Notes under the pieces: model-generated
Database searches by the model: none
Told to the model about the DNA's origin: nothing
Seen by the model: the letters and a program-made list of their open reading frames with translations, nothing else
Shown: in pieces, positions 427 to 50,978 of the stretch
Position numbering within the stretch: position 1 is the first letter of the stretch
Layout of the letters: each line of letters opens with the position of its first letter
Position numbers and translations under genes: made by a program
Assembly (NCBI GenBank): GCA_964629655.1
Contig: CAZVQU010000001.1
Coordinates: 356,056-420,055, forward strand
Direction of reading: 5' to 3'
Length of the DNA stretch: 64,000 nucleotides
Source of the DNA: an uncultured Planctomycetia bacterium
GTDB taxonomy: Bacteria; Omnitrophota; Gorgyraeia; Duberdicusellales; 4484-171

Positions 427-2325
427 TTAAACATTAATCTTTAAATTTTCTATAATCTCAAGAAGATCGGGAGTTAAAAAATTATGTTCTACGGGAATAA
501 TGTATTCCTCAGGCTTAGAAGATAAGAATTTATCTATATGCCCTAAAGCCTCCTGGGTAGCCCTAAAAGGAACTAACGTCTTTCCGTAAGCTTCACGCGC
601 GCCGTCCCAAACGTCGATTGAATCATGATAAAGAGAAAGCAACGGTAATCCCATAAGCCTTGCTTCATAGGTAGGAGTTGAGGGAAAATCCGTAATAACT
701 CTATCGGCCTGCCTTAAATACGTCATGAGATTACCATCCTTATAGAAAATATTCGGCGCTTTTAAATCCTTTAAAAAATTTAAAAGGGATTTAGCAATCC
801 ACCTTTCCGTTGGCAGAACTTTAATAATAAAATCATACTGGGGTAATTCGGCAAAATACCTGCATAAATTACACTGAAGATGAAAATACCAGCTCAAAGG
901 ATAGGTGCATCGGAGCCTTTGAACACCTTGCGCGACAGGAAGGTAACACACCTTCTCTCTATGTTTGTTTAAACTCCTGCTAGCGGCGGATTTTAAAAAC
1001 CTACGTGCTGTCTTTTTTGCTTCACCGCTATATTTGCCTATCCAAACTCTCGAGGCGATTACTTCGATCTTGCCCTGGTTATTCTCATTAAAACACTTAT
1101 CATAAAAGACAGCCTCCTCGATTGAGGGAGTAGCATAGACATCGGTCGGCTGTTCGGAGAAATACTGCATGTGGTATTCAGCTTCACCGCCACCATGCTC
1201 AACATGTATAGAAAATACTTGAGGTAACAATTTGGCTATAGTCATAACTCCATATTCAGAAAGAAATATCTTATACGCAGTGGCAACATAGTTTATCTTC
1301 TCTTTCTGAAGAATCTTCTCATACTTTTTCGCGGTTATACTTATAATCGGACATATTTTCTGTAAGAAATACAAAAAACGAGGGTTTAATATCCGGCTCA
1401 GATCAATACCGGATTCACGGCTTATCCATTCGCAAGGATGAAATTCCCGAATACAACTTTCTCCTATTTCCTCCCATAAGGCCGATGTTTTTATATCAAC
1501 ACAAAAATCTTCTACTTTCTCTTCTTTTCTCTTGCGAAAAAAAAGATTTTTTTTAGGACCATGTATTGTATGATATAAAATTTGATGGCCTGCTTTTGTG
1601 GCGTTTTTATACAGATTGCCCAGCCAATCTTCTCTTAAAATAAGGATTTTTTTAAGTTTGCCTTCCTTCGCGAGCTGTTTTCTTTTGAGATAAAATAATA
1701 GATATATTATTTGAATATGTGCTCTTTTTATAACTCTGCCTATAGCTTTAAAGGCTCTGCTGGGGAAACGTCTTAATTTAAGATGAATAAAATTAACTTT
1801 AGAATTTTCTGGATTAACCATAATAACAGAATACGGTATACCCTTCTCCTCGCAAATAATGGGCAATAAATAAGAAGTTAAGTCGCTTTTGTCCGTAAAA
1901 AGCGTTGAATCAAATCCAACTCGTGGATGAGATGCTGTCACTAAACATACCTTTGAGGGTTTTTCTTTATCTAATACTGACAAAATATTTCTGCTGAATA
2001 TTATAAATGAATCAATCATGGTTATGATAGAATAGCCGTATAATTTTACGAAATTAATTTTTTTATCAAGAGGGTCTGTTAATTTAGTTCTTAAATAATT
2101 ATCAAAAGCATTAAACCAAGGGAGCTTTCGTTGATCACATTCTCTAGCATACTTTTCTCTTTCAAACATATCATAGAAATCTTCGTAAATTTGGTAATCT
2201 ATCACTTCTTTATCCAGCTTGCGGCAGACAGCGGGATTCAAAGCGATAATCTTACCCTTTAAACTATGTACTAAAGAATTAAACTCCTCTACAAAATATA
2301 TGCTTTCGGCATTACTATTTATCAT
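427..2325 (-). CDS. Large polysaccharide-biosynthesis enzyme of unknown family; candidate glycosyl- or phosphotransferase
   Basis: 632-aa ORF at the distal end of the glycan locus. C-terminal half has a His/Asp-rich segment (HVEHGGGEAEYH...DVYATPS...VLPTERW) reminiscent of TagF/KpsC-type capsule transferases. No firm motif match. Confidence 0.4.
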   Translation of the reverse strand: MINSNAESIYFVEEFNSLVHSLKGKIIALNPAVCRKLDKEVIDYQIYEDFYDMFEREKYARECDQRKLPWFNAFDNYLRTKLTDPLDKKINFVKLYGYSIITMIDSFIIFSRNILSVLDKEKPSKVCLVTASHPRVGFDSTLFTDKSDLTSYLLPIICEEKGIPYSVIMVNPENSKVNFIHLKLRRFPSRAFKAIGRVIKRAHIQIIYLLFYLKRKQLAKEGKLKKILILREDWLGNLYKNATKAGHQILYHTIHGPKKNLFFRKRKEEKVEDFCVDIKTSALWEEIGESCIREFHPCEWISRESGIDLSRILNPRFLYFLQKICPIISITAKKYEKILQKEKINYVATAYKIFLSEYGVMTIAKLLPQVFSIHVEHGGGEAEYHMQYFSEQPTDVYATPSIEEAVFYDKCFNENNQGKIEVIASRVWIGKYSGEAKKTARRFLKSAASRSLNKHREKVCYLPVAQGVQRLRCTYPLSWYFHLQCNLCRYFAELPQYDFIIKVLPTERWIAKSLLNFLKDLKAPNIFYKDGNLMTYLRQADRVITDFPSTPTYEARLMGLPLLSLYHDSIDVWDGAREAYGKTLVPFRATQEALGHIDKFLSSKPEEYIIPVEHNFLTPDLLEIIENLKINV

Positions 2326-3552: not shown

Positions 3553-4935
3553 TTATGAAATTACTAATTTTTTTTCACCTAAATTGCGATTAACAATTCG
3601 CGGAGTTAAAGTTAAATATTCTTTTTCAATTAAATATTTAACAATCCCTAAAATCCGATAATCGCTGTATTTAACCCCTGTTACTTGTAAACCAAACGGC
3701 ATACTGTCCGGCCCTCTAAATACTGGCACATTCAGTGCGGGAGCTCCTAACAATGACCAGATTAAACCAGTATCGTCTACTTCTTTGTAGTTATTTCTCA
3801 AGGGAGCGATATTCGCCGTCGCCGGCGTAAGGATTAAATCATAGCTATCATAGTTATAATCAAACTCTTTTTGCATCCTTTCCTGCTCCTTAAGGGAATT
3901 ATGAAACTCTTGCACTGTAATTTTTCTACCATGCTCAACCATGCTATAGAGAGTTGAGCTAATTACATTTTTATCCGCACTTTCTCGTTTAAAATAATAA
4001 GCTAAACTCTTATCGTATAAAGTCGAATGTATTCTATGGCTGCCATCAAAGAAACCATCATCTTTTATATCTAGCACCTTGATCTCTTCTTTAGTCCTTA
4101 AAAAATCAACTAAACCTTCAAATTGATTTTTGACATAATCCTGATATCCCTGCCAAAGATATTCAGGTCTTAAAATCCCAATTTTTATGCTATTGTAGCC
4201 TACAATGGAACGTTTCTTTAGCATCGTATTGCTTATAGGGTAATTTTCACCGCGTACTCTTAAGATATCAAAAAGTAAAATTATATCGTCAATATTATTG
4301 GCAAAAAACCCAACATGATCTAACGTATTGGTAGTTTTTAAAACTCCCGTTCGGGGCATAGTTCCGTAAGAAGGTTTGCATCCAAAAATACCGGTATAAC
4401 TAGCCGGCCTTACGATGGAAGATCCTGTCTGTGTACCTAACGAGGCTATGGACAACCCCGCCGCGACCGCAACTGCTGAACCCATTGAGGATGTTCCCGG
4501 AGAGTAATCGTTATTGTGCGGGTTTAGGGTTATGCCCGGATGATGTACGGCTAACTCTGCGGTAACTGTCTTACCCGTAACTACTCCATCCTCCCAAATG
4601 GCTTTCTCCACAACTCTTGCATTATTCCCTGCTACATATCCTTTCCAGTAAGGACTTCCTTTCTCAGTCGTAAGTTCAACAGTATTAAAAACATCTTTAA
4701 CGCCAATGGGGACGCCATACAACTCTCCATGCGTTTTCCCTTCTTTAATTCTCTTAATAATCTGCTGCACCCTGTCAAAAACAACACTCTCATCAAACAC
4801 CTGAAAAGCCATTAACTCACTATCCATGGCTTTAATAAAAGATGTTAACTTTTTATAAAACTCCTCAAGATCAATCTCTCTTGTTTTAATTAGTTTTATA
4901 AACTGTTTAATGTTAATTTGGGTTAAATTAATCAC
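3553..4935 (-). CDS. Amidase-signature (GatA-like) amidase
   Basis: AS-family signature GVPIGVKDVF...GTSSMGSAVAVAAGL...GTQTGSSIVRPAS, with the Ser-cisSer-Lys triad context. 460 aa. Confidence 0.7.
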   Translation of the reverse strand: MINLTQINIKQFIKLIKTREIDLEEFYKKLTSFIKAMDSELMAFQVFDESVVFDRVQQIIKRIKEGKTHGELYGVPIGVKDVFNTVELTTEKGSPYWKGYVAGNNARVVEKAIWEDGVVTGKTVTAELAVHHPGITLNPHNNDYSPGTSSMGSAVAVAAGLSIASLGTQTGSSIVRPASYTGIFGCKPSYGTMPRTGVLKTTNTLDHVGFFANNIDDIILLFDILRVRGENYPISNTMLKKRSIVGYNSIKIGILRPEYLWQGYQDYVKNQFEGLVDFLRTKEEIKVLDIKDDGFFDGSHRIHSTLYDKSLAYYFKRESADKNVISSTLYSMVEHGRKITVQEFHNSLKEQERMQKEFDYNYDSYDLILTPATANIAPLRNNYKEVDDTGLIWSLLGAPALNVPVFRGPDSMPFGLQVTGVKYSDYRILGIVKYLIEKEYLTLTPRIVNRNLGEKKLVIS

Positions 4936-6118
4936 TCTTTCTCCCTTTTAAGCAATCCTTGTACTTAGGTAATTTTTTGGCGTTCCCTTCCCGATGAGCC
5001 TCAAGAATTTCGTGGAATTCTTCTTCGCTAAATCCGGTCATCTTAAGATATTTATCTAATTGGTCAGGCCTTTCTCCATCAAGTTTATATATTAGCTCCA
5101 TCGCTTCTTTTCTTGTTAATAACCCTTGCCGGATATCTTCGCTAGCATGGTCAGTGGTTCTACCATACCCTCTTTTAATAAACTTAGCATAATCATGAAC
5201 TCCTACCATTTTACATTCAACGCTTTTATATCTTTTGTATGTACCTTCCATATAATTCTGCCGCCAGTTATATTCTTTTATGAGAAACTCTACCTGCCTC
5301 ATCTCATCCCAATAATAATAATCACCAAGATGTATACCCTTCACGCCAACCTCCTCTATCTCTTTATCAGAAGGCAATTCATAAGCTGCCATATCTTTCT
5401 TAGTCAACCGGCTTCTTTCATTTATCATCTCGCCAGGATACTTCTTCGCGGAAATTTTTGTATAATAATGCTTATCATACGGAATAATATCATCATAAGT
5501 GGCTCGGCCATCCATTTCTGCAACCGACTCACCATAAATCATTAAGGGTATCTTTAGCTTAACCGCGAGCTGCAAGGGAAAAGCTCCGACACCAGCATGG
5601 CAATGCCAACACGCGTCACCTATTTGATATAGTGATTCTTTTGCAATTTTGTTTATTGCTTCTCTATTGGGAGTAAACATCATATGGTCTATGTTCAATC
5701 GCTCCAAAATATTCCAAAGATTGTATTTGCCCGTCTCACTATACCAATTATGGTTAAACGTTACAGCCAGAATATGCATGTTATATATTTTTTTTAACAT
5801 ATGAAGCTGAAAGCAGCTGTCTTTCCCCCCGCTGATAGGCACCATTATGTCGTAGGTTCCTCTTTTCCTTCCTTCCTCCTTCGCTTCTTCCAATATCTGC
5901 CGCAATTGCTCTTCTCTTTGGGCCCAATTAATATGCATTTTAGTCTCTGACGAACGGCACGCTGTACACATTCCCATTTCATCAAAGCCTACACCTTCTT
6001 GCGTATCAGGTAAACAACAACGCACGCAATACCTTATTCCTTTAAATGGCCCTCCACCATAATATTTTGTTTTTTCTTTACCGGTTTCTTTAGAAACTGT
6101 CATCTTTTGCCTCCTCAA
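4928..6118 (-). CDS. N-acetyl sugar amidotransferase paralog (PP-loop)
   Basis: Same architecture as 2338-3534: Cys knuckle (CVRCCLPDT...GMCTAC) plus PP-loop ISGGKDSCFQ. Divergent paralog. Confidence 0.7.
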   Translation of the reverse strand: MRRQKMTVSKETGKEKTKYYGGGPFKGIRYCVRCCLPDTQEGVGFDEMGMCTACRSSETKMHINWAQREEQLRQILEEAKEEGRKRGTYDIMVPISGGKDSCFQLHMLKKIYNMHILAVTFNHNWYSETGKYNLWNILERLNIDHMMFTPNREAINKIAKESLYQIGDACWHCHAGVGAFPLQLAVKLKIPLMIYGESVAEMDGRATYDDIIPYDKHYYTKISAKKYPGEMINERSRLTKKDMAAYELPSDKEIEEVGVKGIHLGDYYYWDEMRQVEFLIKEYNWRQNYMEGTYKRYKSVECKMVGVHDYAKFIKRGYGRTTDHASEDIRQGLLTRKEAMELIYKLDGERPDQLDKYLKMTGFSEEEFHEILEAHREGNAKKLPKYKDCLKGRKSD

Positions 6119-6128
6119 ACATTTATCC

Positions 6129-6671
6129 TTAACTCTTAAATTCCTTTGAAAGAAGCCCCATCATAATGATATTTTTCCATTTGCCGTCTCTTAATAGGCC
6201 TTCCCGCGCTATACCTTCTTGTTTAAATCCTAATTTTTTATAAAGGAAGCGCGCTTTAGCATTACTTTCATTTACGCTAAGATAAACTCGGTGTAAATTT
6301 AGCGTTTTAAAAGTATGCCGCAGGATCAGCTTTGTTGCTTCTGTTCCGTAACCTTTACCGTGGTGCAGGCGATCAATAATTATTTTGAATCCAGCTCTTC
6401 TATGCGTGTAATCAATGCGGGCGATTTCTAAATTGCCGATATGCCTATTGCTCTTTTTTTCGATTATCGCAAGCCAGATACAAGAAGAATCTCTCCACTT
6501 ACTCTGAGCAAATCGCTCCAGTTCATCTAAACTGTGAGGAAATTGGGCATGCTCAGTAAATTCATCATTTGCCACGTCATTAATCCATCTGAAATAATCT
6601 CCCCCTAAATCTTGTCTTTCAACGGGACGCAGGTAAATCTTTTTGCCTTCCAAAAATTTAACTTTTCGCAT
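6129..6671 (-). CDS. GNAT-family N-acetyltransferase
   Basis: GNAT core motifs (HRRAGFKI...HGKGYGTEA...LHRVYLSVNESNAKARFLYKKLGF). 180 aa. Confidence 0.65.
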   Translation of the reverse strand: MRKVKFLEGKKIYLRPVERQDLGGDYFRWINDVANDEFTEHAQFPHSLDELERFAQSKWRDSSCIWLAIIEKKSNRHIGNLEIARIDYTHRRAGFKIIIDRLHHGKGYGTEATKLILRHTFKTLNLHRVYLSVNESNAKARFLYKKLGFKQEGIAREGLLRDGKWKNIIMMGLLSKEFKS

Positions 6672-33474: not shown

Positions 33475-34072
33475 GACACTCTGCCCTTTCTACTAATTTA
33501 GCTTTATTCTTTATAATAATATCGACTAAACAATGGCAAATTGAATGGTGCGTTATTTCAACAAATCCATATTCTGATATTGGAACATAGAAATTAATAT
33601 CGCCTAACCTTCTTAAGGGATTATCTTGATTAAACCCTGATAGGGTTATAACTTTTAGGCCCCTCTCTTTTGCGGCGGCTGCAGCACATAAGATATTTTC
33701 TGATTGCCCTGAACTACTAATAGCTATCAAGATATCTTGGGGTTCACTAAACATTTCAATTGGTTTCTCAAAAACATGTCTATACCCAAAGTCATTGCTG
33801 ATACAAGTTAGAAGCGAGCTATCATTAAAGCTAAATGCTTTTATGCCGGCATTCTTCCAGAAATCAGTAGCCATATGGCTTGCTATCGAAGCACTTGCAC
33901 CATTACCGATTAAAAAGAGTTTTCTTCCTTGAGTTGCTCGTTCAATAATCAGGTCAATAGACACCTCGGCTGCTTCGTCGAATTCATACCTTTCATTGTT
34001 TGATCCAGTAACAATAGTTTTCTCGAGCAATCCGCCCAAAACTTCAAAATATTCTCTAATATCTTTTTTCAT
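33467..34072 (-). CDS. SIS-domain sedoheptulose-7-phosphate isomerase-like (GmhA-like)
   Basis: SIS phosphosugar-binding motifs (FLIGNGASASIASHMATDF...ISSSGQS). 201 aa. Confidence 0.7.
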   Translation of the reverse strand: MKKDIREYFEVLGGLLEKTIVTGSNNERYEFDEAAEVSIDLIIERATQGRKLFLIGNGASASIASHMATDFWKNAGIKAFSFNDSSLLTCISNDFGYRHVFEKPIEMFSEPQDILIAISSSGQSENILCAAAAAKERGLKVITLSGFNQDNPLRRLGDINFYVPISEYGFVEITHHSICHCLVDIIIKNKAKLVERAECRE

Positions 34073-35601
34073 TTTAATAACCTCGTTATAAATTTGACTA
34101 AATCGACAGATTTTACCGGCTCCCGGTTACATATTATCTGAACCGCTAATGAGCCTACCGCGTTTCCGATAAAAGATGCTAAATCCTGCGACATTCCGTC
34201 TGCAAAACACGGCCCCACAAAGGCAAAAAAAGCATCCCCTGCGCCAATGGCATCAACAACACGATAAGAAAAGGCCGGGGTTGCATGAAAGCCTTCTCTT
34301 TCACAATAACTTAGGGACCCCGTCGGTCCACGAGTAGTAATAATATTCTCACAGTTAAGTTGCTGATATACTTTTTTAATCTGCTTTCGTAAATCACTCG
34401 ATTTATCATGGGTAGCATAACGTAACTCTAGCTCATCAACACAAACACAATCGGCCCGGGGATACTTAGTTACTAAATTAAACCCGATATTGGCACTATT
34501 GGTTTGTACATTTAAAGCAAGATATTTTGCCTTTCGGCAAATAAGATTGATAATCCGTTTTGTCAATAAACCATGGCCAAAATCAGAGATAACAACCAGA
34601 TCATAATTTTTTATTGTCTTATCAAGAGATTCTACGATTCTTGTCTCAAGTTCACGGGAGATATAATCATCTTCCATATAACAGATCTCAAATAATTTTC
34701 TATTTGTCCCCTCGGTCACAAATCTCCGTTTTACAATCGTACCGACATCGCGCCTAGGGAAGAAAACCGGGTTAACATTAGGGCTTAACCGACTCTTGAT
34801 AAAATTCTCAAAAGGATTCTTTTCACCCAAAACAGTTAGTAAATCAACTTCCCCGCAAACACTGGCAACATTATTTGCTGTGGCTAAAGTTCCGCCGGCA
34901 AACGATTCTTCTGACCGATACCGATTAGCCACCAAATGCTCCTTGGAAGACTTTCCCATTGGTAAACAGTAGTGATATTGGTCAATAATTGTATCTCCGA
35001 TTACTAGCGCTTTTAAGCTTTTGAGTGAATGTAATTTCTCGGTTATAAAGTCTATTGAATACCTCTTTGAAATTGCTCTTAAATATTTAACTGTCCTGGG
35101 AGAAAAAGTATCAAGATAATCATTAATCAATTTAGAAGAACTAAAAGTAATGTCATCGGTAAAAACTAAACGCCCTCCTACCGACTTTACCGCCTCTTCT
35201 TCGTCGTGGATCTTACCGGTTACGTCCTTTTCTTTATCCCTATAATCAGAACCTTTTGCGTAAATATTAGGCTTAAGTACCTTAATGCATTCGATAGCAA
35301 CTGATGAATCAATAATCGATATATAATCAGTAACCGCCAAAGACGCCAGAGTTTCGGCTCGCAGATGTTCATTGAAGATCGGCCGGCCTGGACCGCGCTT
35401 CACATGCTTATCTTTGGTAATGGTAACTACAAGAATATCACCTTCTTTCTTGGCCAGATTAAAATGGCGTATATGCCCAAGATGAACGAGATCAAAGACA
35501 CCATGACATTGAACAACTTTCTTACCTTTAGCCTTATGACCTGCTACAATCTTGGCTAAACTGCTTACTGTTTTTATCTTTTTTGTAATCTTTGTGTCCA
35601 T
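34069..35601 (-). CDS. Bifunctional sugar-phosphate nucleotidyltransferase / PfkB-family sugar kinase (HldE/RfaE-like, domain order reversed)
   Basis: N-terminal cytidylyltransferase-like HxGH (CHGVFDLVHLGH). C-terminal PfkB motif DAIGAGDAF. The ORF track start 35712 overlaps the upstream gene by 110 nt. The internal Met (MDTKITKK) at 35601 removes the overlap. Confidence 0.6.
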   Translation of the reverse strand: MDTKITKKIKTVSSLAKIVAGHKAKGKKVVQCHGVFDLVHLGHIRHFNLAKKEGDILVVTITKDKHVKRGPGRPIFNEHLRAETLASLAVTDYISIIDSSVAIECIKVLKPNIYAKGSDYRDKEKDVTGKIHDEEEAVKSVGGRLVFTDDITFSSSKLINDYLDTFSPRTVKYLRAISKRYSIDFITEKLHSLKSLKALVIGDTIIDQYHYCLPMGKSSKEHLVANRYRSEESFAGGTLATANNVASVCGEVDLLTVLGEKNPFENFIKSRLSPNVNPVFFPRRDVGTIVKRRFVTEGTNRKLFEICYMEDDYISRELETRIVESLDKTIKNYDLVVISDFGHGLLTKRIINLICRKAKYLALNVQTNSANIGFNLVTKYPRADCVCVDELELRYATHDKSSDLRKQIKKVYQQLNCENIITTRGPTGSLSYCEREGFHATPAFSYRVVDAIGAGDAFFAFVGPCFADGMSQDLASFIGNAVGSLAVQIICNREPVKSVDLVKFITRLLK

Positions 35602-35602
35602 T

Positions 35603-36592
35603 CTACTCCTTTGCCAAACATTCAAACCATTCCTGGGTTGCCTCTTTAATTGACTCAGGTGTCCATACCGGAGCATCTTTCCAATAATCAATATTCTCAA
35701 TAATTTTTCCAATTCCCTCTTCGAAACTAATCCTTGGTTGCCAACCTAAAGCAGATTTAATCTTGTTTATGTCAGCATGGGTGCAATCCGGTTCGCCCGG
35801 CCTTTTGGGAATATGCACTTTTTCTCCTTTAAGAAGCGATACCAATCTATTTACACTTCGGGGATTGCCTGAACCAACATTAAAAACTTCATTTTTTACA
35901 TCCGAATATGCAGCTTGGATAAAAGCTTCTACTACATCAAAGACATGAATAAAATCCCGCCTCTGTTCTCCATCGCCAACAACTGTAAAGGGTTTACCGG
36001 CCAACTTTTGGGCTAAAAAAACACCAAAAACTGCTCCATATGTACCTGAGGTTCGTGAACGCGAGCCATAAACATTAAACAGCCTTAAAGAGATAACTGG
36101 CAATTTATATACCTGGCCCCAATGTAAAACAATTTCCTCGCCTAAATGCTTAGTGAGCGCATAAGGGTATTGAGGGTGAATTTCAGAAGTCTCCGGTGTA
36201 GGATATTTATCAGGAATACCGTAGCAAGATGAAGATGCAGTATAAACCAGTTTTTTAACCCCTGCTAACCTGGCAGCTTCTATGACAGAAAAAGTTCCGG
36301 TAACATTAGATTTATAATATTGGGCTGGGTTAACTATGGAAGGAACTATATCTGCTAAAGCCGCCATATGTATAACTATATCTATATCCTTAAAATGACC
36401 TTTTATAACCGAAAGTTCTGATATGTCTTTCTGGATAAACTCTAAATTCTTGTTATTTTTGTGATTATCTAGATTTTGTAATCTCCCGGTAGAAAGATTA
36501 TCAATAACTCTCACACTGTGGCTATCACAAAGCAAACGGTCAACCATATGGCTGCCAATAAAACCTGCTCCTCCAGTAACTAAATACCTCAT
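35603..36592 (-). CDS. NAD-dependent sugar nucleotide epimerase/dehydratase (GalE/WbpP-like)
   Basis: VTGGAGFIGSHMVDRL...YxxxK. 329 aa. Confidence 0.7.
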   Translation of the reverse strand: MRYLVTGGAGFIGSHMVDRLLCDSHSVRVIDNLSTGRLQNLDNHKNNKNLEFIQKDISELSVIKGHFKDIDIVIHMAALADIVPSIVNPAQYYKSNVTGTFSVIEAARLAGVKKLVYTASSSCYGIPDKYPTPETSEIHPQYPYALTKHLGEEIVLHWGQVYKLPVISLRLFNVYGSRSRTSGTYGAVFGVFLAQKLAGKPFTVVGDGEQRRDFIHVFDVVEAFIQAAYSDVKNEVFNVGSGNPRSVNRLVSLLKGEKVHIPKRPGEPDCTHADINKIKSALGWQPRISFEEGIGKIIENIDYWKDAPVWTPESIKEATQEWFECLAKE

Positions 36593-36936
36593 CTGCTTCC
36601 TTTCAGTGCCTCTTCGCTACTTCTTAGCTTTTCCCATTCGTCTTTAAGCTTATTGAATTCTGCCTCTTTTCTTTTTAAAAAATGATATGTAAGCTTCACC
36701 TTTTGCCCTAACCCTTTTCCGGTAAGAATGTATTTTACTTTTCCAAGTTTCCCTGGGTTATGGGAAAAGTTCTTCATTTTTACTACGCCCCTTTTGATCA
36801 ATTCCTTTATAAGATAATTAGTCTTGCCTAAAGACATATTAAGATTCTTAGACAGTTCTCTTTGGGTAAGATTTGGAGAATTATGGAGCTCTGAGAGAAG
36901 TCGAAAAGCCTCTTCGTTATGGGAATGTTGGTTCAT
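36589..36936 (-). CDS. Small winged-helix (MarR-like, EPS-locus-associated) transcriptional regulator
   Basis: 115 aa. HTH LTQRELSKNLNMSLGKTNYLIKELIKRGVV. Size and context match the EPS-associated MarR-type regulator family. Confidence 0.5.
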   Translation of the reverse strand: MNQHSHNEEAFRLLSELHNSPNLTQRELSKNLNMSLGKTNYLIKELIKRGVVKMKNFSHNPGKLGKVKYILTGKGLGQKVKLTYHFLKRKEAEFNKLKDEWEKLRSSEEALKGSR

Positions 36937-37077
36937 TGGTTATATAGTTAAAAAAAATTAAAGGTTATGGAAGCAGAAAAGGAGAGAAAAAGTTAGGACA
37001 AAGTTTGCTTTTTCTGAAAGTGTATTAGCCCAATCCTTCCTATCTTCTTAACCCCTCTAGATATCATAGCTATTGCT

Positions 37078-37809
37078 TTACCATTGGCTAACAATATAAT
37101 AAAATCCATTCTTTTTACCACTCACATCTTGCTCGAGAATTGTTTTTATAAACCTACCGCCGCCTTCTTTTATCATTGGTTTAAATATATCAGCGCTAGA
37201 ACCTCCACAACTTTCTAGCAATACAACATAACCATCCTTTTTCATAAACATTTTTATTTTATTGTAGAACCGTCTATGGACTCTCCAATCTTGGTCATAG
37301 ATTTTTATGTTAGTATGTGTTTTTTCGGTTACCAGGCAATGAGGAGGGTTCCCAACTACCAAATCCCACTGCTCACTTCGTGGAATTCCATCTAAGCAAT
37401 CGGATAAATAAATATTAACAAGGTTTTCAATTCCATTGTAAGAAGCAGTAGCTTTGGCTATTTCAACCGCTTTTGGATCTATGTCGGCTAATGTTAACTT
37501 TTCGCAAAAACCATTCGCCAAAAGGGAATATCCTATATACGCTGGCCCAGCACAAAACTCATAAATACTCTCACAGCGTTTTAATCCCAACATAAGCAAA
37601 CACTTTGAATAATCTTGCCCAAACTCACTCCCCCCGCCATCTAAGGAAGGTTTACCAAAAACACTTATTCCGTTGTAGATTACTTTACTGGTTTTATCAT
37701 CAATATAAGCTTTAGGTGAACTTTTCTTTCCCCTAATAACAATTCTTTTACAAACCTCTTTTAAAAGAAAAGAGCTTTTAAAATTAAGAAGCACAGGTGA
37801 TTTTTCCAT
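37078..37809 (-). CDS. SAM-dependent methyltransferase with NPPH (amino-methyltransferase-type motif IV)
   Basis: EFCAGPAYIG motif I-like. DLVVGNPPHC motif IV, the D/N-P-P-[YFH] type of N-directed MTases. AAGGAGG SD 4-5 nt upstream of the ATG. 243 aa. Confidence 0.5.
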   Translation of the reverse strand: MEKSPVLLNFKSSFLLKEVCKRIVIRGKKSSPKAYIDDKTSKVIYNGISVFGKPSLDGGGSEFGQDYSKCLLMLGLKRCESIYEFCAGPAYIGYSLLANGFCEKLTLADIDPKAVEIAKATASYNGIENLVNIYLSDCLDGIPRSEQWDLVVGNPPHCLVTEKTHTNIKIYDQDWRVHRRFYNKIKMFMKKDGYVVLLESCGGSSADIFKPMIKEGGGRFIKTILEQDVSGKKNGFYYIVSQW

Positions 37810-37990
37810 TTTCCCTCCTTATAATTATTTTCTTTTCTCTGTCTCTTAAACCTTTAGATATTGTGGCAAGTCCACCTTCACGCTATTTTTTCTGCCCGAA
37901 CGGACTCCGTCCCGCTCAGTCCCATTCATCTTTCTTCCATCCGAAAAGACGTTCTAACAAAAGGATACGGTATTAATAATTTATCTCTTC

Positions 37991-38539
37991 TTAAGCTACC
38001 TCAGCAAAACATGCATCAGTAACAAATTTAATCGATGATTGAATTGCATCAACTGAAATCACTATGGTAGTACTCTTGTCTCTTTTCTCTACAATATAAC
38101 CCTCTAATCCCTTCAAAGGCCCTGCTTTAATGAAGACTTTATCTCCCACATTTAAATAAGGATGATAATCAACCTCGATATCATTTGTGGCCAGAACTTT
38201 TAAGGAACTTATGACTAACTCCTCAACCGCTATATATTGCTTATTGAAATGCACTAATCCAGCTACGCCGAGTTGAGAAATAATCTTTATCTTATCTTTT
38301 AAATAGAATTTCGCAAAACAGTATCCTTTAAAAAGGGGCTCTTCAATTAATTTTATTCTGTCTGACCAACTTCTCCGTATATTTACCTTAGGAGTAAAAG
38401 CCTCAATCCCTTTCTGCAACAATTGGTTTTCAACAAACTTTTCGTGGCGAGATTTGGTATATAGAACTCTCCACTTCTTAGCATCAACTTCTTCGTTATG
38501 GGATTCGGGGAAATGGTCAAGATCAACATGTTCATTCAT
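37991..38539 (-). CDS. NusG-paralog transcription antiterminator (UpxY/RfaH/LoaP-like)
   Basis: NGN-domain signature KKWRVLYTKSRHEKFV. C-terminal KOW GDKVFIKAGPLKGLEGYIVEK. The ORF track start at 38680 overlaps the sat/cysC gene by 38 nt. The internal ATG at 38537-38539 gives a 183-aa protein typical of NusG paralogs. Confidence 0.6.
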   Translation of the reverse strand: MNEHVDLDHFPESHNEEVDAKKWRVLYTKSRHEKFVENQLLQKGIEAFTPKVNIRRSWSDRIKLIEEPLFKGYCFAKFYLKDKIKIISQLGVAGLVHFNKQYIAVEELVISSLKVLATNDIEVDYHPYLNVGDKVFIKAGPLKGLEGYIVEKRDKSTTIVISVDAIQSSIKFVTDACFAEVA

Positions 38540-38642
38540 TGAACATATTTTACCCCTTACCTTATATATGTCAATATGTTTTATAAACTGTTGGGGTAAA
38601 GACTCAAGGCCTCTAAGTCTTTGTGCAAGAAGAAGTAAGATA

Positions 38643-40532
38643 TCAAGAATATCTTCGCCTCTCAACATATCCTTTCTCAAGCAGATAATTTAAAATGGTT
38701 TGTGCTCCTTCTTCTCTAGTTAGATTTTGGGTATCAATAATTATTTCTGGATTCTCCGGCTCCTCATAAGGGGCTGAAACTCCGGTAAACTCCTTTATTT
38801 CTCCTTGACGGGCTTTTTTGTAAAGTCCCTTAGGGTCTCTTTTTTCACAAGTAGAAATATCTGCCTTGATGAAAACTTCTACAAAGTCGCCCTCGTGCAC
38901 TAGACTTCTTACTTTTGCTCTATCTTCTTTATAGGGAGAAATAAAGGCAGTGGTTATTAAACTCCCTGAGTCACAGAAAAGCTTTGCGACCTCACCTATT
39001 CTCCTTATATTTTCCTCCCTATCTTGGGGGGAAAACCCTAAGTCTTTATTTAAGCCATGTCTGATGTTGTCTCCGTCTAAAACGTAAGTATTGTGTCCTA
39101 GTTCAAATAATAAAGCTTGAAGTTCAACAGCAATTGTCGATTTACCTGAAGAAGGAAGACCGGTAAACCAAATAATAGCGCCTTTATGCCGGTTTCTTTT
39201 TTCCCGGTCTTGCTTTGATATGCCGGATTCATGCCAGGTTATATTCTTACTCTTTATCCCTTTATCTCTATTCTTCTCCTTGTAAAATTCGATCAAAATC
39301 TCTGCAACGGGTTTACGCATAATTCTTTCATCAACTTCTTCTGCATTTTCTAACTTTTTACGTAAACCTTTTCCGGAAATTGACACCTTACGATAACCCT
39401 TTTCCTTAAACTCCTTAACCAATCCTACCCTTCCTATTTCTTCAAAGTAAGCAGCAAAACCGACTTTAACCGGTTTTATAAAAAGTTCACCTGCTAGATC
39501 ATCAAACTTCTTGTGGGCATCAAAATCTCCCCAAACAACCTCCCCAGTATCAAAAGAAGCGTCAGCGTGCTTTCTGCCAATTACTATATCGCTAAACCCG
39601 TAATTCTGCCGATAAATTGCATGCATAACTGCTTCTTTTGGCCCGGCATAAAACATCTTCATATCAAGACCTATAAGTAAAAATTGATCATTTAGGTCGT
39701 AACCTTTACTCTTCCAAAAATCTAAATCTTTATCCCCATAACCTAATACTTTATTATCGATTAAAGCCTCATAAGACCTCATCCTCACTTCTGCAGGTAC
39801 ATCGTCAGACTTAGTAGCTCCTACTAAAGGATTTAACACTACCCCGGTAAAGAATCCTTCCTTTGTCAATTTTTCAACCGCATAAACAAGCGCGTATTCA
39901 TGAGCCCGATGCAAAGCATTCCTCGTCTGAAAAGCAACAATCCTTTCCCACCCTCGCTCCTCAAATAGAATTCTGGTTTCCTCCGGACTAAGCATATATT
40001 TACCATACACCGGATGGTCTAATGCCGGTAAAGCCCAGATCTTTCCCCCCAAAAGATGATTTCTCCCGTCCTCATTAACTATTCGAGGTCCGGGGTGATC
40101 GGCTCTTTCAGTGCCGTAAACGGATTTATTGTATTTAGCCTTATCAAAAAAGTAAGTATCCGAAACCTCTAAAGTCCCGATAATTACTCCATGTTCACTT
40201 TTTACAACAATGGTTTCACCAATTTTAAAATTGTTCGCTTCTTGGCCGGATATTGGAAAAGCTAATGGAATTGTCCATGCATATTTCTTACCATCTCTTT
40301 CTATAACTTCTTCATCCAAAACTCGGTTAAACTCATTGCTATCCATCGGTCCTTCCAGAGGCGACAAAGCTCCATCGGCAATCCGATAGAATATTGACAG
40401 ATCAGCATTACTGATAGTATAGGTTTTTAGCTTTAAAGCTTTTTGGACAAAAGATTCTCTTTCTACTTCTGGAACGACCCTGCTTATAAGCCCACACCCG
40501 CCATGAGCAGAAAGACTAGCCTTAGTTGTCAT
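38643..40532 (-). CDS. Bifunctional sulfate adenylyltransferase (ATP sulfurylase) / APS kinase
   Basis: ATP sulfurylase [13 protein letters not shown] and VIGRKHAD motifs in the N-terminal 400 aa. C-terminal APS kinase Walker [14 protein letters not shown]. 629 aa. Confidence 0.8.
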
Positions 40533-40571
40533 AGCATAACCCTCCTTGTTAAAATTAATTTTGCTTGCTCT

Positions 40572-41300
40572 CTAAATTAAATGCTTATTTCTTTGCAAAT
40601 AGTTTAATATCTTCCTTACGCACTCATCAACAGACATATCCTTAGTATTAATAGTTATTTCCGGAATTTCCGGCGGCTCATAGGGATCATTGATACCTGT
40701 AAAATTGTCTATTAATCCTTTTCTTGCTTTTTTATATAACCCCTTGGGATCTCTTTTTTCACATTCCTCTAATGGCGTGCTTACATATACCTCGATAAAA
40801 TTTCGGCATTTTTCCCTTACAAACTTTCTTGCTTCTTTGTAGGGGGATATAAAGGAAGCAACTACTGTAACTTTATTGCTCTCTAAGATGTTTGCTAACA
40901 AACTAATTCTTCTTATATGCGCATCCCTCTCGGATTTAGAGAATCCTGTTGCTGGCAGCATCATCCTCACCCTTTCCCCATCAAGCCTCTGAACATTACG
41001 AGACATTCTTAACAACTTCGTCCAAACAGCATCTGCCAATGTACTTTTTCCAGAAGCAGGAAGGCCAGTAAACCATAAAACAAAAGGAACTATTTCCTTC
41101 CTCCCGAAACTGATTTTATCCCACAGCCTCTCGTGGGAAAAATACAAAAGCATTTTTACAATAACTTCAAAAAAACCAATAGCCAAGGCTATTTTTATCT
41201 TTCCGGTAAAAATAAGGACTAAAGAGGCTGTTGTTAATGTCGCTAGCGTCCTCCATGAAACCGTCTTTGCTACCGACCTTGCTTTTGTTTCCTTAAACAT
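40572..41300 (-). CDS. cysC: APS kinase with N-terminal membrane-associated extension
   Basis: About 70-aa hydrophobic N-terminus (WRTLATLTTASLVLIFTGKIKIALAIGFFEVIVKMLLYF), then FTGLPASGKSTLA and an APS-kinase core. 242 aa. Confidence 0.7.
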   Translation of the reverse strand: MFKETKARSVAKTVSWRTLATLTTASLVLIFTGKIKIALAIGFFEVIVKMLLYFSHERLWDKISFGRKEIVPFVLWFTGLPASGKSTLADAVWTKLLRMSRNVQRLDGERVRMMLPATGFSKSERDAHIRRISLLANILESNKVTVVASFISPYKEARKFVREKCRNFIEVYVSTPLEECEKRDPKGLYKKARKGLIDNFTGINDPYEPPEIPEITINTKDMSVDECVRKILNYLQRNKHLI

Positions 41301-45771: not shown

Positions 45772-47118
45772 CTATTTTCCCATCCCGATATAACCAAATC
45801 CCATCCGACGCAATTTATCCCGGTCAAACATATTCCTTCCATCGGCAATAAGCGGATAGTGCATTAGTTTTTTGACTCTTTTTAGGCCCAATTCCTTGAA
45901 TTCTTCCCACTCAGTTAATAAACAAAGACAATCACAACCCTTAACTGCTTGATAAGGATCTTTAGTAAACTTCACCTTTGCAGAAGATTTGAAGATTTTC
46001 TTTGCTTCTTCCAAACTTTGAGGATCACAAAGGCAAAGGTGAGAGCCCTCTTGAATAAAAGCCTTTACAATATCAACTGAGGGTGCAAATCGCATATCAT
46101 CTGTATCAGGCTTAAAGGAAAGTCCTAAGATGGCAATCTTTTTTTCCTTAAGAATCCATAGGTGCTCTTTTACCTTTTCTACAAAGCTAAGACGTTGTTG
46201 TTTGTTAATAGCCTTAACTTCTTTAAGCAAACCAAAATCATACCCTAGCTTCTTTGAAATATAGCTAAAGGCCTCAACATCTTTAGGAAAACAAAACCCA
46301 CCATAACCTATACCGGCCTGCAAGAACTCTTTACCGATTCTTCGATCTAACCCCATAGCTAAAGCTATCTTTTCGACATCAGCACCGGCCAAATCACACA
46401 CTTGCGAAACTGCATTAATAAAAGAAATCTTTGTAGCGAGAAAGGAGTTTGAAGCATGCTTAATAAGCTCAGATGTATTTATATCAGTAACTATTATCGG
46501 GGCTTTTACTGCTGCATATATATCTTTTAGTATCTCCTCAGCCCGTTTTGATTCTACACCAATAACAATTCTATCCGGGCAAAAGAAATCATAAATTGCC
46601 TTCCCTTCCCTTAAAAATTCAGGATTTGAAGCTACATCAAAATCATTGCCGTTCTTTTTGTAACGATGAATGGTCTCTTTTATCTTTCTGCCTGTCCATA
46701 CCGGAACAGTTGATTTACCTACTATTAACTTATAAGAATTAAGATTCTTGGCAATTGTATGGGCAACATTTCCTACTGAGGTCAAATCAGCAGAACCATC
46801 TGCTTGGGGAGGCGTACCAACAGCGATAAAAATAACCTGGGATTTCTTAATAGCCTCTGGCAAGGATGATGAAAAAACTAACCCCTTAGACTTAAGGCCT
46901 TTCTTAACTAGAGGATTTAGATCCGGCTCATAAAAGGGTATATATTTTTTCTTTAAAGACGCTACTCTCTTTTTATCTTTATCCACGCAGTATACCTTAT
47001 GCCCCAGCTCAGCAAAACAAGCCGCAGCAACAAGCCCCACATGCCCGGCGCCAATAACACAAATTTTATACCTTTTAGTATACTTTTTCTTAGCTATTCC
47101 CTTTCCTTTTTTCTTCAT
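45772..47118 (-). CDS. ugd: UDP-glucose 6-dehydrogenase
   Basis: ICVIGAGHVGLV...GGFCFPKD catalytic motif. 448 aa. Confidence 0.75.
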   Translation of the reverse strand: MKKKGKGIAKKKYTKRYKICVIGAGHVGLVAAACFAELGHKVYCVDKDKKRVASLKKKYIPFYEPDLNPLVKKGLKSKGLVFSSSLPEAIKKSQVIFIAVGTPPQADGSADLTSVGNVAHTIAKNLNSYKLIVGKSTVPVWTGRKIKETIHRYKKNGNDFDVASNPEFLREGKAIYDFFCPDRIVIGVESKRAEEILKDIYAAVKAPIIVTDINTSELIKHASNSFLATKISFINAVSQVCDLAGADVEKIALAMGLDRRIGKEFLQAGIGYGGFCFPKDVEAFSYISKKLGYDFGLLKEVKAINKQQRLSFVEKVKEHLWILKEKKIAILGLSFKPDTDDMRFAPSVDIVKAFIQEGSHLCLCDPQSLEEAKKIFKSSAKVKFTKDPYQAVKGCDCLCLLTEWEEFKELGLKRVKKLMHYPLIADGRNMFDRDKLRRMGFGYIGMGK

Positions 47119-50900: not shown

Positions 50901-50978
50901 TGGTCGGGAGGGCGGGACTTGAACCCGCGGCCTCTTCGTCCCGAACGAAGCGCGCTAGCCAAACTGCGCTACCCCCCG
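50901..50978 (-). tRNA. tRNA-Pro (anticodon CGG), CCA encoded
   Basis: Hand-folded cloverleaf: acceptor CGGGGGG/CCTCCCG with one G-U, D-arm, anticodon stem CTTCG/CGAAG with loop TTCGGGA, T-arm GCGGG-TTCAAGT-CCCGC, 3' ACCA. Confidence 0.8.

Follow-up and report, generated by a model that had tools for sequence, protein, structure and literature searches.

The DNA described here is a stretch of 64,000 nucleotides (nt) of contig CAZVQU010000001.1, from an uncultured bacterium placed in the Omnitrophota; this whole 64-kb stretch is called the window. Its centre of interest is a gene for a NusG paralog of the UpxY family, upxY, together with a conserved 25-nt motif just downstream of it, a candidate site for loading the paralog onto RNA polymerase. 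The genes in this part of the window are all on the minus strand. Upstream of upxY, sugar-precursor and sulfation genes run in the same orientation over about 8.5 kb; the co-oriented genes on this side are an LptD-like gene, two genes for UDP-sugar dehydrogenases, two for epimerases, a DegT gene, a gene for a fusion of DUF2061 with adenosine phosphosulfate (APS) kinase, and sat/cysC. Downstream, about 40 more co-oriented genes reach position ~430, covering about 37 kb of glycan genes. With UDP-glucose dehydrogenases, epimerases, DegT, sat/cysC and an HldE-like protein among their products, the same-strand flanks of upxY are those of a polysaccharide biosynthesis locus. An earlier note on this DNA had placed a UpxY/RfaH-like NusG paralog inside such a locus and not at its head, and this is what we find. 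The coordinates of the features are collected in Table 1.

Table 1. Features of the upxY region, in window coordinates.
Feature	Position	Strand	Remarks
UpxY-family NusG paralog, 182 amino acids from ATG at 38539	37991..38539	minus	NGN plus beta-rich KOW-like C-terminal domain
Candidate ops-like pause and recruitment element, AUGGGACUGAGCGGGACGGAGUCCG	37901..37925	minus	conserved 25-nt motif
Mini-hairpin GGAC-GGA-GUCC, CG-N-AG core	37902..37912	minus	inside the motif; putative pause at C37902 (−1), G37901 (+1)
3' part of the GC-rich island, GUUCGGGCAGAAAAAAUAGCGUGAAGGUGGACUUGCCAC	37862..37900	minus	window-specific; 5' edge of the extra segment, outside the conserved element
Promoter-like site TTGACA-16-TAAAAT	38547..38574	minus	agrees with the consensus at 11 of 12 positions; 7 nt separate its end from the upxY ATG
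sat/cysC, bifunctional ATP sulfurylase/APS kinase	38643..40532	minus	Pfam PUA_2, ATP-sulfurylase, APS_kinase; gene immediately preceding upxY
Extra segment, ~932 bp	36967..37898	minus	methyltransferase gene and both flanking spacers; ends GCAGAAAA / TTTTCTGC
S-adenosylmethionine-dependent methyltransferase, HemK/PrmC-like small methyltransferase domain, NPPH motif	37078..37809	minus	Pfam MTS, E 8e-10
MarR_EPS, MarR family EPS-associated regulator	36589..36936	minus	NCBIfam TIGR04176, 109 bits (cutoff 88); synteny

The longest open reading frame (ORF) of upxY, 37991..38680 on the minus strand, has a TTG start, encodes 229 amino acids (aa) and overlaps sat/cysC by 38 nt. The internal ATG at 38539, also proposed in the earlier note, is likely the best start. 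It is preferred because of the overlap created by the TTG frame, because the 172 homologues found in databases are mostly 168–190 aa long, because conservation among them begins around residue 21 of the 182-aa version, and because the relative L003 (loci compared with the window are designated by such handles) uses the same ATG context as its start.

The protein contains an NGN domain, matched by Pfam PF02357 over profile positions 1–90 of 93 (E 4e-14). Among the NusG-type models of NCBIfam, that for UpxY (NF033644) scores highest, with 96.9 bits, slightly below its cutoff of 100, followed by RfaH (70), LoaP (53) and NusG (21); the homologous protein of locus L007 reaches 124.8 bits with the UpxY model. 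The cutoffs of the RfaH models are missed by a wide margin (70.1 against 144.5 bits for TIGR01955, 63.3 against 124 for NF006534), as is that of the LoaP model NF033641 (53 against 125). Homologues that carry a name are called 'UpxY family transcription antiterminator', including those of 54–60% identity, which were named so by NCBI; they come from Candidatus Omnitrophota and, in one case, from Nitrospirae. The nearest solved structure in the PDB, by sequence, is RfaH, in an alignment spanning both NGN and KOW domains. An AlphaFold (AF2) model, with a predicted local distance difference test score (pLDDT) of 78, has an NGN fold and a beta-rich C-terminal domain with five beta strands in residues 134–181, while Pfam reported no KOW match for this protein at E up to 0.001. 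An alpha-helical, autoinhibitory C-terminal domain of the RfaH type is not predicted by the AF2 model, a weak test given the shallow alignment. The net charge of the KOW domain is 0 (−1 to +3 in relatives) and the NGN domain is basic. An SRHEK block was considered as a set of distinctive DNA-contact residues and rejected as non-discriminating, being present also in a Brocadiaceae protein whose locus is free of the motif.

The spacer downstream of upxY (37810..37990) is exactly 181 nt long, and the transcript string quoted in the earlier note is present in it, at 37892..37923 of the minus strand. The 32-nt core is 71.9% guanine plus cytosine (GC), matched by just 0.06% of 32-nt segments in the 64 kb; these form eight clusters, one of which is a tRNA gene. 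Over 61 nt the GC content is 55.7% and over 90 nt about 50%, against 28% in the spacer flanks and 37.5% in the whole window. The GC-rich core of the island was thus correctly noticed, but the 90-nt stretch is less rich in GC than first described. Of the island, only about 25 nt are conserved, and the rest is specific to the window. In an alignment of spacers (A1) the window matches L001–L006 from the upxY stop codon through ...AAUGGGACUGAG-N-GGGACG-R-AGUCCGUU and then diverges; the match resumes where the MarR gene begins, at AACCUUU...UAACUAUAUAACCAAUG. Judged from this alignment, the island is composite, its 5' part being the conserved motif and its 3' part the edge of an extra segment of about 932 bp.

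In consensus the motif reads wAUGGGA[C/G]UGAGAG-GG(A)CG-R-AG(U)CC-G. In all 12 lineages examined it occurs on the strand of a NusG-paralog gene and 26–300 nt downstream of it; these lineages belong to two clades of the protein, one of which is only 30% identical to the protein of the window. The three closest lineages (the window, L001/2 and L003–6) keep it although the flank is altered by an insertion or deletion (indel). Among homologues 53–90% identical it is present in all nine lineages sampled (P0001, P0003, P0010, P0013, P0021, P0071, P0072, P0080 and P0107), and the contexts of seven homologues beyond the closest relatives (53–68% identity) each contain a recognisable same-strand copy. 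An exact-pattern scan of a metagenome collection with GGGACTGAGNGGGACGNAGTCC yielded two loci, L007 and L008. In the former, from a higher-GC organism, the motif stands 34 nt past the stop codon of a NusG paralog 30% identical to that of the window, so that a search made without bias towards such genes ties the motif to NusG paralogs; L065, whose protein is 63% identical to the L007 one, has the variant CUGGGGCUCAGAGGGACGAAGUCCA. Outside the motif, spacers are unalignable across lineages. The core is thus conserved in related and distant genomes alike, and it is not the remnant of a gene, two points on which the note had left its proposal open to refutation: a tiny ORF from the motif AUG (MGL[R/S]GT[K/E]S...) was rejected, as L010 and L011 read AUG-UGA.

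Covariance models (CMs) built from the sites give true copies 30–54 bits. The window site scores 46.8 bits (E 8e-12) with model R1 and 39.4 bits with model R2 with filters off, the runner-up in the window reaching 9.3 bits; the 64 kb contain a single copy. No copy was found upstream of upxY in any locus by CM scans. In 355 kb of unrelated control DNA, preselected for a partial match, no CM score exceeds 14 bits; in viral contigs the strict pattern has 0 matches and the 37 matches to a loose pattern, which served as a negative control, all score at most 14 bits. The exact pattern occurs once in 596 Gb of species-representative genomes, within overlapping ORFs of a 67%-GC Variovorax, a match that looks like chance and is about the number chance predicts. 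This single match argues against a multi-copy repeat. A repeat family, whether of repetitive extragenic palindromes (REP) or of miniature inverted-repeat transposable elements (MITE), was rejected, there being one copy in the 64 kb of the window and, in the exact scans, the two metagenome loci and the one chance-like genome match. That the motif acts in cis and has a function tied to the NusG paralog is a narrower claim, in which our confidence is much higher than in the ops-like mechanism considered below.

Several loci have particularities around the motif. In L008 the motif (1190..1214, minus strand) is flanked by a Wzy_C/TPR-like gene on one side and, on the other, by an ORF of 123 aa (762..1133, minus strand) resembling the four-helix-bundle '23S rRNA intervening-sequence protein' family. 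L010 has two copies (3706..3742 and 6109..6144), the second degenerate (12 bits), with about 12 nt of common upstream flank, GCAGUCCAUG; they flank, on both sides, a block of HEPN/nucleotidyltransferase toxin–antitoxin pairs and small ORFs downstream of upxY. In L014 (3776..3900) and L017 (3836..4030) a similar Cys-rich small ORF, of 64 aa as called in L017 and absent from the window, is located downstream of the motif.

Within the motif, the inner GGAC-GRA-GUCC is the sole pairing that survives comparison, with 97.7% of cells paired against at most 48% when the 3' partners are slid. The GGACU/AGUCC hairpin of the earlier note can be drawn in the window, but it is not conserved, being broken by a C-to-G change (GGGAGU) in L011, L014, L017 and L020. 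The A and U of the third pair of the inner stem are lost together in L010, L013 and L021, leaving GGC-GRA-GC[C/U]. These short-stem variants, GCGAAGC in L010 and GCGGAGC in L013 and L021, are exact instances of GCGNAGC, and the common form, GGACGRAGUCC, is a hairpin of the GCGNAGC type plus one A-U pair. The oligonucleotide d(GCGAAGC) and related hairpins with GNA triloops are said, from work of Hirao and colleagues in the 1990s, to be unusually stable as DNA, which would fit a role of the motif at the DNA level.

The motif is also compatible with a transcriptional pause. The elemental pause consensus is G−10/Y−1/G+1. Taking the last C of GUCC as position −1, a G at −11/−10 and a G at +1 are present in 11 of the 13 sites, and the short-stem variants restore the GG-N8-YG spacing through a YG two bases further on.

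Two other roles considered for the spacer fare less well. A larger structured RNA is unsupported and was rejected: no Rfam family matches the spacer at gathering score, with E relaxed to 10 there is still no credible match within 37700..38100, the whole spacer folds no better than shuffled sequence (z = −0.48), covariation is absent, and the 9-bp extended stem of the minimum free energy fold of the window relies on non-conserved, window-specific island sequence. That the site is an intrinsic terminator or attenuator between two operons is scarcely credible. The hairpin is followed by GUUUUAACCUUUGUUUUUUU in L001 and L003, and a terminator-like hairpin is located between upxY and the motif in L010 (flagged in that locus only, and not general). 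In the window, however, the hairpin is followed by GCAGAAAAAAU, an A-run, and a terminator scan found no terminator-like site within the spacer; the 3' flank of the motif is unconserved and in most loci not U-rich, and a 4-bp stem is too weak.

We propose that the motif (37925..37901, minus strand) is an ops/opsX-type cis-acting loading site for the UpxY-family paralog encoded just upstream, a reading to which we assign a probability of about 0.5. Among the possibilities listed in the earlier note, an ops-like recruitment element is the one favoured by the comparative data, while the mechanism is a proposal from sequence. RNA polymerase would transcribe upxY, starting either at the promoter-like site (38574..38547) or in the upstream sulfation genes, and would pause at ...GAG-C-GGGACGGAGUCC|G, in a register with G at −11 and −10, C at −1 and G at +1. 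The non-template strand in the open bubble would then fold into the mini-hairpin GGAC-GGA-GUCC, with its CG-N-AG core. The NGN domain of the paralog would recognise this hairpin together with the 13 invariant nucleotides upstream of it, AUGGGACUGAGNG, read as upstream duplex DNA; these would be the counterpart of the upstream-duplex part of opsX. Retained by the polymerase, the factor would confer resistance to pausing and termination over the ~37 kb of co-oriented glycan-assembly genes, and the setting of about 40 same-strand genes after upxY may be expected to need such processivity. As the site comes after the factor gene, synthesis of the factor would be independent of the site. In the window and its close relatives upxY has its own strong promoter-like site and in other lineages it directly follows Wzc and Wzy_C/TPR genes, so the factor gene would in either case be transcribed before the polymerase reaches the motif.

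The closest known parallel is in Bacteroides, where UpxY proteins are recruited at opsX sites (Saba et al. 2024, Nat Commun, PMC11685472). These elements, about 40 bp long, have two parts: a hairpin of the non-template strand, spanning −11 to +1 of a consensus pause, and upstream duplex DNA, which the NGN domain reads. As there, the cognate factor here is a UpxY-family protein whose gene is part of the polysaccharide locus that it would control. The element likewise exceeds 12 nt, its CG-N-AG-type hairpin being directly preceded by conserved sequence, and its sequence is compatible with a consensus elemental pause in which the hairpin spans −11 to +1. The hairpins match in sequence: 5'-YGCGNAGCR in Bacteroides opsX and 5'-GCGGTAGC in E. 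coli ops (PMC11685472), GG(A)CG-R-AG(U)CC in the present motif, with three lineages having exactly GCGNAGC. There are differences. The present element is about 25 nt long rather than about 40 bp and has, in most lineages, an extra A-U stem pair; it is one near-invariant sequence across lineages, whereas Bacteroides has many locus-specific variants per genome. Bacteroides upxY genes come first in the operon and are followed by the gene for the UpxZ inhibitor, whereas here upxY is mid-locus, and after it come the motif, then a methyltransferase gene and then marR_EPS; a UpxZ-like partner was not evident, although no dedicated search for UpxZ was made.

With E. coli ops and RfaH the system shares a specialised NusG paralog and long envelope-polysaccharide operons, RfaH being also the nearest structure by sequence, and the hairpin core resembles that of ops, being GGCGGTAGCGTG in ops and UGGCGGAGCCCUG in L013. 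The score of the protein, 70 bits, is nevertheless well short of the 144.5 bits of the RfaH cutoff, and its C-terminal domain is predicted by AF2, in what is a weak test, to be a beta-barrel and not an alpha-hairpin. The loop of the hairpin has three nucleotides instead of four, without the flipped-out T6 of ops, there are thirteen extra conserved nucleotides upstream of it, and the factor gene adjoins the site, while that of RfaH is elsewhere in the genome. The JUMPstart element (Rfam RF01707) is likewise a conserved non-coding element of polysaccharide operons and contains a NusG-paralog loading site, but neither it nor any other cis-regulatory family of Rfam matches the spacer, even at E up to 10.

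A third comparison leads to the main alternative, that the motif acts as RNA. For LoaP of Bacillus velezensis, a leader RNA hairpin has been proposed as the recruitment determinant and a basic KOW domain as the RNA-binding part. LoaP too is a NusG paralog in or next to a long biosynthetic operon that it regulates, with a small hairpin as its proposed recruitment determinant. By analogy, the hairpin and the purine-rich strand preceding it could be bound as RNA by the KOW domain of the paralog, or by another protein, or the motif could be an RNase processing site or a 5' stabiliser. We regard such a role as rather unlikely. In every case the motif has the sense orientation of the co-oriented genes around it, its hairpin can form in RNA, and in L020 it ends 4 nt before the next start codon, within the translation-initiation region. 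However, with a stem of 4 bp and a loop of 3 nt the hairpin would be marginal as RNA, and the fold is no better than shuffled. A general translation element is also at odds with the distance from motif to next start codon, which varies from 4 nt (L020) to 373 nt. The hairpin differs from that of LoaP in its DNA-type CG-N-AG core, the signature of the known non-template DNA hairpins, and in Bacteroides recognition has been demonstrated at the DNA level, via the NGN domain (PMC11685472). The protein falls well short of the LoaP model (53 against a cutoff of 125 bits), and its near-neutral KOW and basic NGN domains are unlike the basic KOW domain of RNA-binding LoaP, which we count in favour of ops-like loading.

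Several observations weigh against an ops-type loading site. The known sites, Bacteroides opsX and E. coli ops, are in the leader before the first gene, whereas the motif comes after the factor gene. The 3-kb contig of L008 has the motif after its Wzy_C/TPR gene and no NusG paralog. Two more distantly related UpxY-like genes lack the motif: that of Brocadiaceae adjoins murD, and that of Bryobacteraceae belongs to an exosortase locus. Across 10 lineages, variants of the motif show no pattern when compared with the protein tree, and no lineage-specific classes. Base-pair substitution covariation is absent, the four pairs being all but invariant. Support for the hairpin therefore comes from one co-deletion and from analogy, and what is conserved in the element is mainly its primary sequence. 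The stability of the mini-hairpin is not significant with either DNA or RNA energy parameters, which are generic and may miss any special stability of GNA triloops. The pause consensus comprises only three positions and is readily met in a G-rich motif. Finally, an upstream RNA pause hairpin, as present in opsX, was not detected, comparison of the motif 5' half with shuffled upstream sequence giving a summed z of 0.58.

One motif-free locus has an arrangement of its own. In L062 (2930..3003), the leader of a Brocadiaceae UpxY-like gene contains a strong hairpin, CCUCCCGCAGGCUGCAAGCCUGCGGGAGG, followed by AAGGCGUAGACAUG just before the start codon, with no motif downstream. This leader may be a Bacteroides-style combination of an upstream pause hairpin and an ops-like sequence.

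The extra segment of about 932 bp starts 3 nt past the motif and has 8-nt inverted ends (GCAGAAAA / TTTTCTGC). The closest relatives, L001/L002 (protein 90% identical) and L003–L006 (82%), have the order sat/cysC, upxY, a 122-nt spacer, a MarR-type gene, an epimerase gene and an HldE-like gene, and lack the methyltransferase gene. The segment is also missing in L013 and the other loci examined, which mildly favours an insertion in the window over a deletion in the relatives. Its GC content and that of its third codon positions (GC3) are like those of neighbouring genes, that is, its composition looks native. The methyltransferase has matches in NCBIfam to HemK/PrmC-like models, all of them sub-threshold. 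The position of the segment raises the question of whether the motif is a recombination or mobile-element site, with the island marking a hot spot for insertion of accessory genes. The two copies of L010, bracketing HEPN/nucleotidyltransferase genes, and the unrelated small gene after the motif in L008 would agree with this. We nonetheless consider it highly improbable: each locus has a single copy, with no other in the 64 kb, the exact pattern is essentially absent from the 596 Gb of representative genomes, no integrase or transposase gene is nearby, and the motif is kept in loci without the indel.

In the closest relatives of the window, the nearest gene 3' of the motif is marR_EPS. A role of the motif as a duplex DNA operator or promoter element, for instance a MarR_EPS site or part of an alternative-sigma promoter, appears improbable. 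A MarR_EPS gene is adjacent in the relatives and in L013, GGGAC occurs twice in direct orientation within the motif together with an inverted GTCC, and the motif stands in front of the downstream genes, as would befit a promoter or operator. However, a MarR_EPS gene within 3 kb is lacking from most motif loci, whereas a NusG paralog is lacking from just one; the dyad symmetry is no longer than 4 bp, and in the window no sigma-70-like promoter overlaps the motif. A sigma-54 or extracytoplasmic function (ECF) promoter was rejected, as by eye the invariant promoter dinucleotides are not conserved in the motif; for sigma-54, L010 and L011 have lost the GG expected at −24, and there is no GC at −12.

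The promoter-like site ahead of upxY, TTGACA-16-TAAAAT, is the top site in a promoter scan of 5 kb and is kept in L001 and L003; it would yield a leaderless or near-leaderless mRNA. A similar unit exists in front of marR_EPS in L013. In the window (38537..38574, minus strand) and in L013 (2516..2555), TTGACA-16/17-TA(A/T)AAT is followed after 7–8 nt by ATGAATGAAC, the L013 form being TTGACA-17-TATAAT-8 nt-ATGAATGAAC. The shared unit suggests leaderless mRNAs for both genes. The N-terminus of the window UpxY (MNEH...HNEE) is similar to that of MarR_EPS, and in L001 a chimeric ORF of 59 aa (3810..3989), with a UpxY-type start and part of the MarR_EPS N-terminus, precedes a upxY gene that starts differently. 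The shared promoter unit, the likeness of the N-termini and the chimeric ORF look like scars of a swap in the order of marR and upxY.

Other features of the window are less closely connected with the motif. Upstream of upxY (38643..41300, minus strand), tandem genes encode two APS-kinase domains, one in a DUF2061-CysC fusion and one in a Sat/CysC fusion, and both are kept in relatives; the pair points to a supply of 3'-phosphoadenosine 5'-phosphosulfate (PAPS) for a sulfated glycan. The HldE-like ORF (34069..35712, minus strand) has a TTG start and overlaps the epimerase gene (35603..36592, minus strand) by 110 nt, its relatives having 512–518 aa; its true start is probably internal. The sole Rfam match at gathering score in the window is a tRNA gene (50904..50978, minus strand), which sits just upstream of the ROK, transaldolase and LptD-like genes preceding the glycan locus. 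A 26-nt direct repeat, 85% identical, is found at the 3' end of upxY (38000..38025) and in the 5' part of a UDP-glucose dehydrogenase gene (47008..47033); both copies encode an ...ACFAE-like peptide and the repeat is probably due to chance.

Experimentally defined recruitment sites for specialised NusG paralogs are few: E. coli ops and, since 2024, Bacteroides opsX, to which the proposed LoaP leader RNA hairpin may be added. No description of the 25-nt element was found in the searchable literature. The motif is a candidate for a third ops-type site, from uncultured phyla. Somewhat tentatively, we suggest that it represents an undescribed class of NusG-paralog loading site, a deeply conserved, extended ops of about 25 nt whose non-template hairpin has a GNA triloop. 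It would follow the factor gene and be common to the UpxY-like factors of Omnitrophota, of lineages labelled Nitrospirae and of other uncultured lineages. The operon logic would differ from that of the known systems, the factor gene coming first and the loading site second: basal expression of the factor would be uncoupled from factor-dependent expression of the glycan genes, the former independent of the site and the long glycan operon dependent on it. A near-invariant 25-mer and a small protein also make a precise, directly testable pairing, and the covariance model could help to annotate metagenome-assembled genomes (MAGs) by marking where factor-dependent transcription units begin. If the proposal is correct, recognition through the CG-N-AG hairpin would be an ancient principle that specialised NusG paralogs share across phyla, well beyond Proteobacteria and Bacteroidota.

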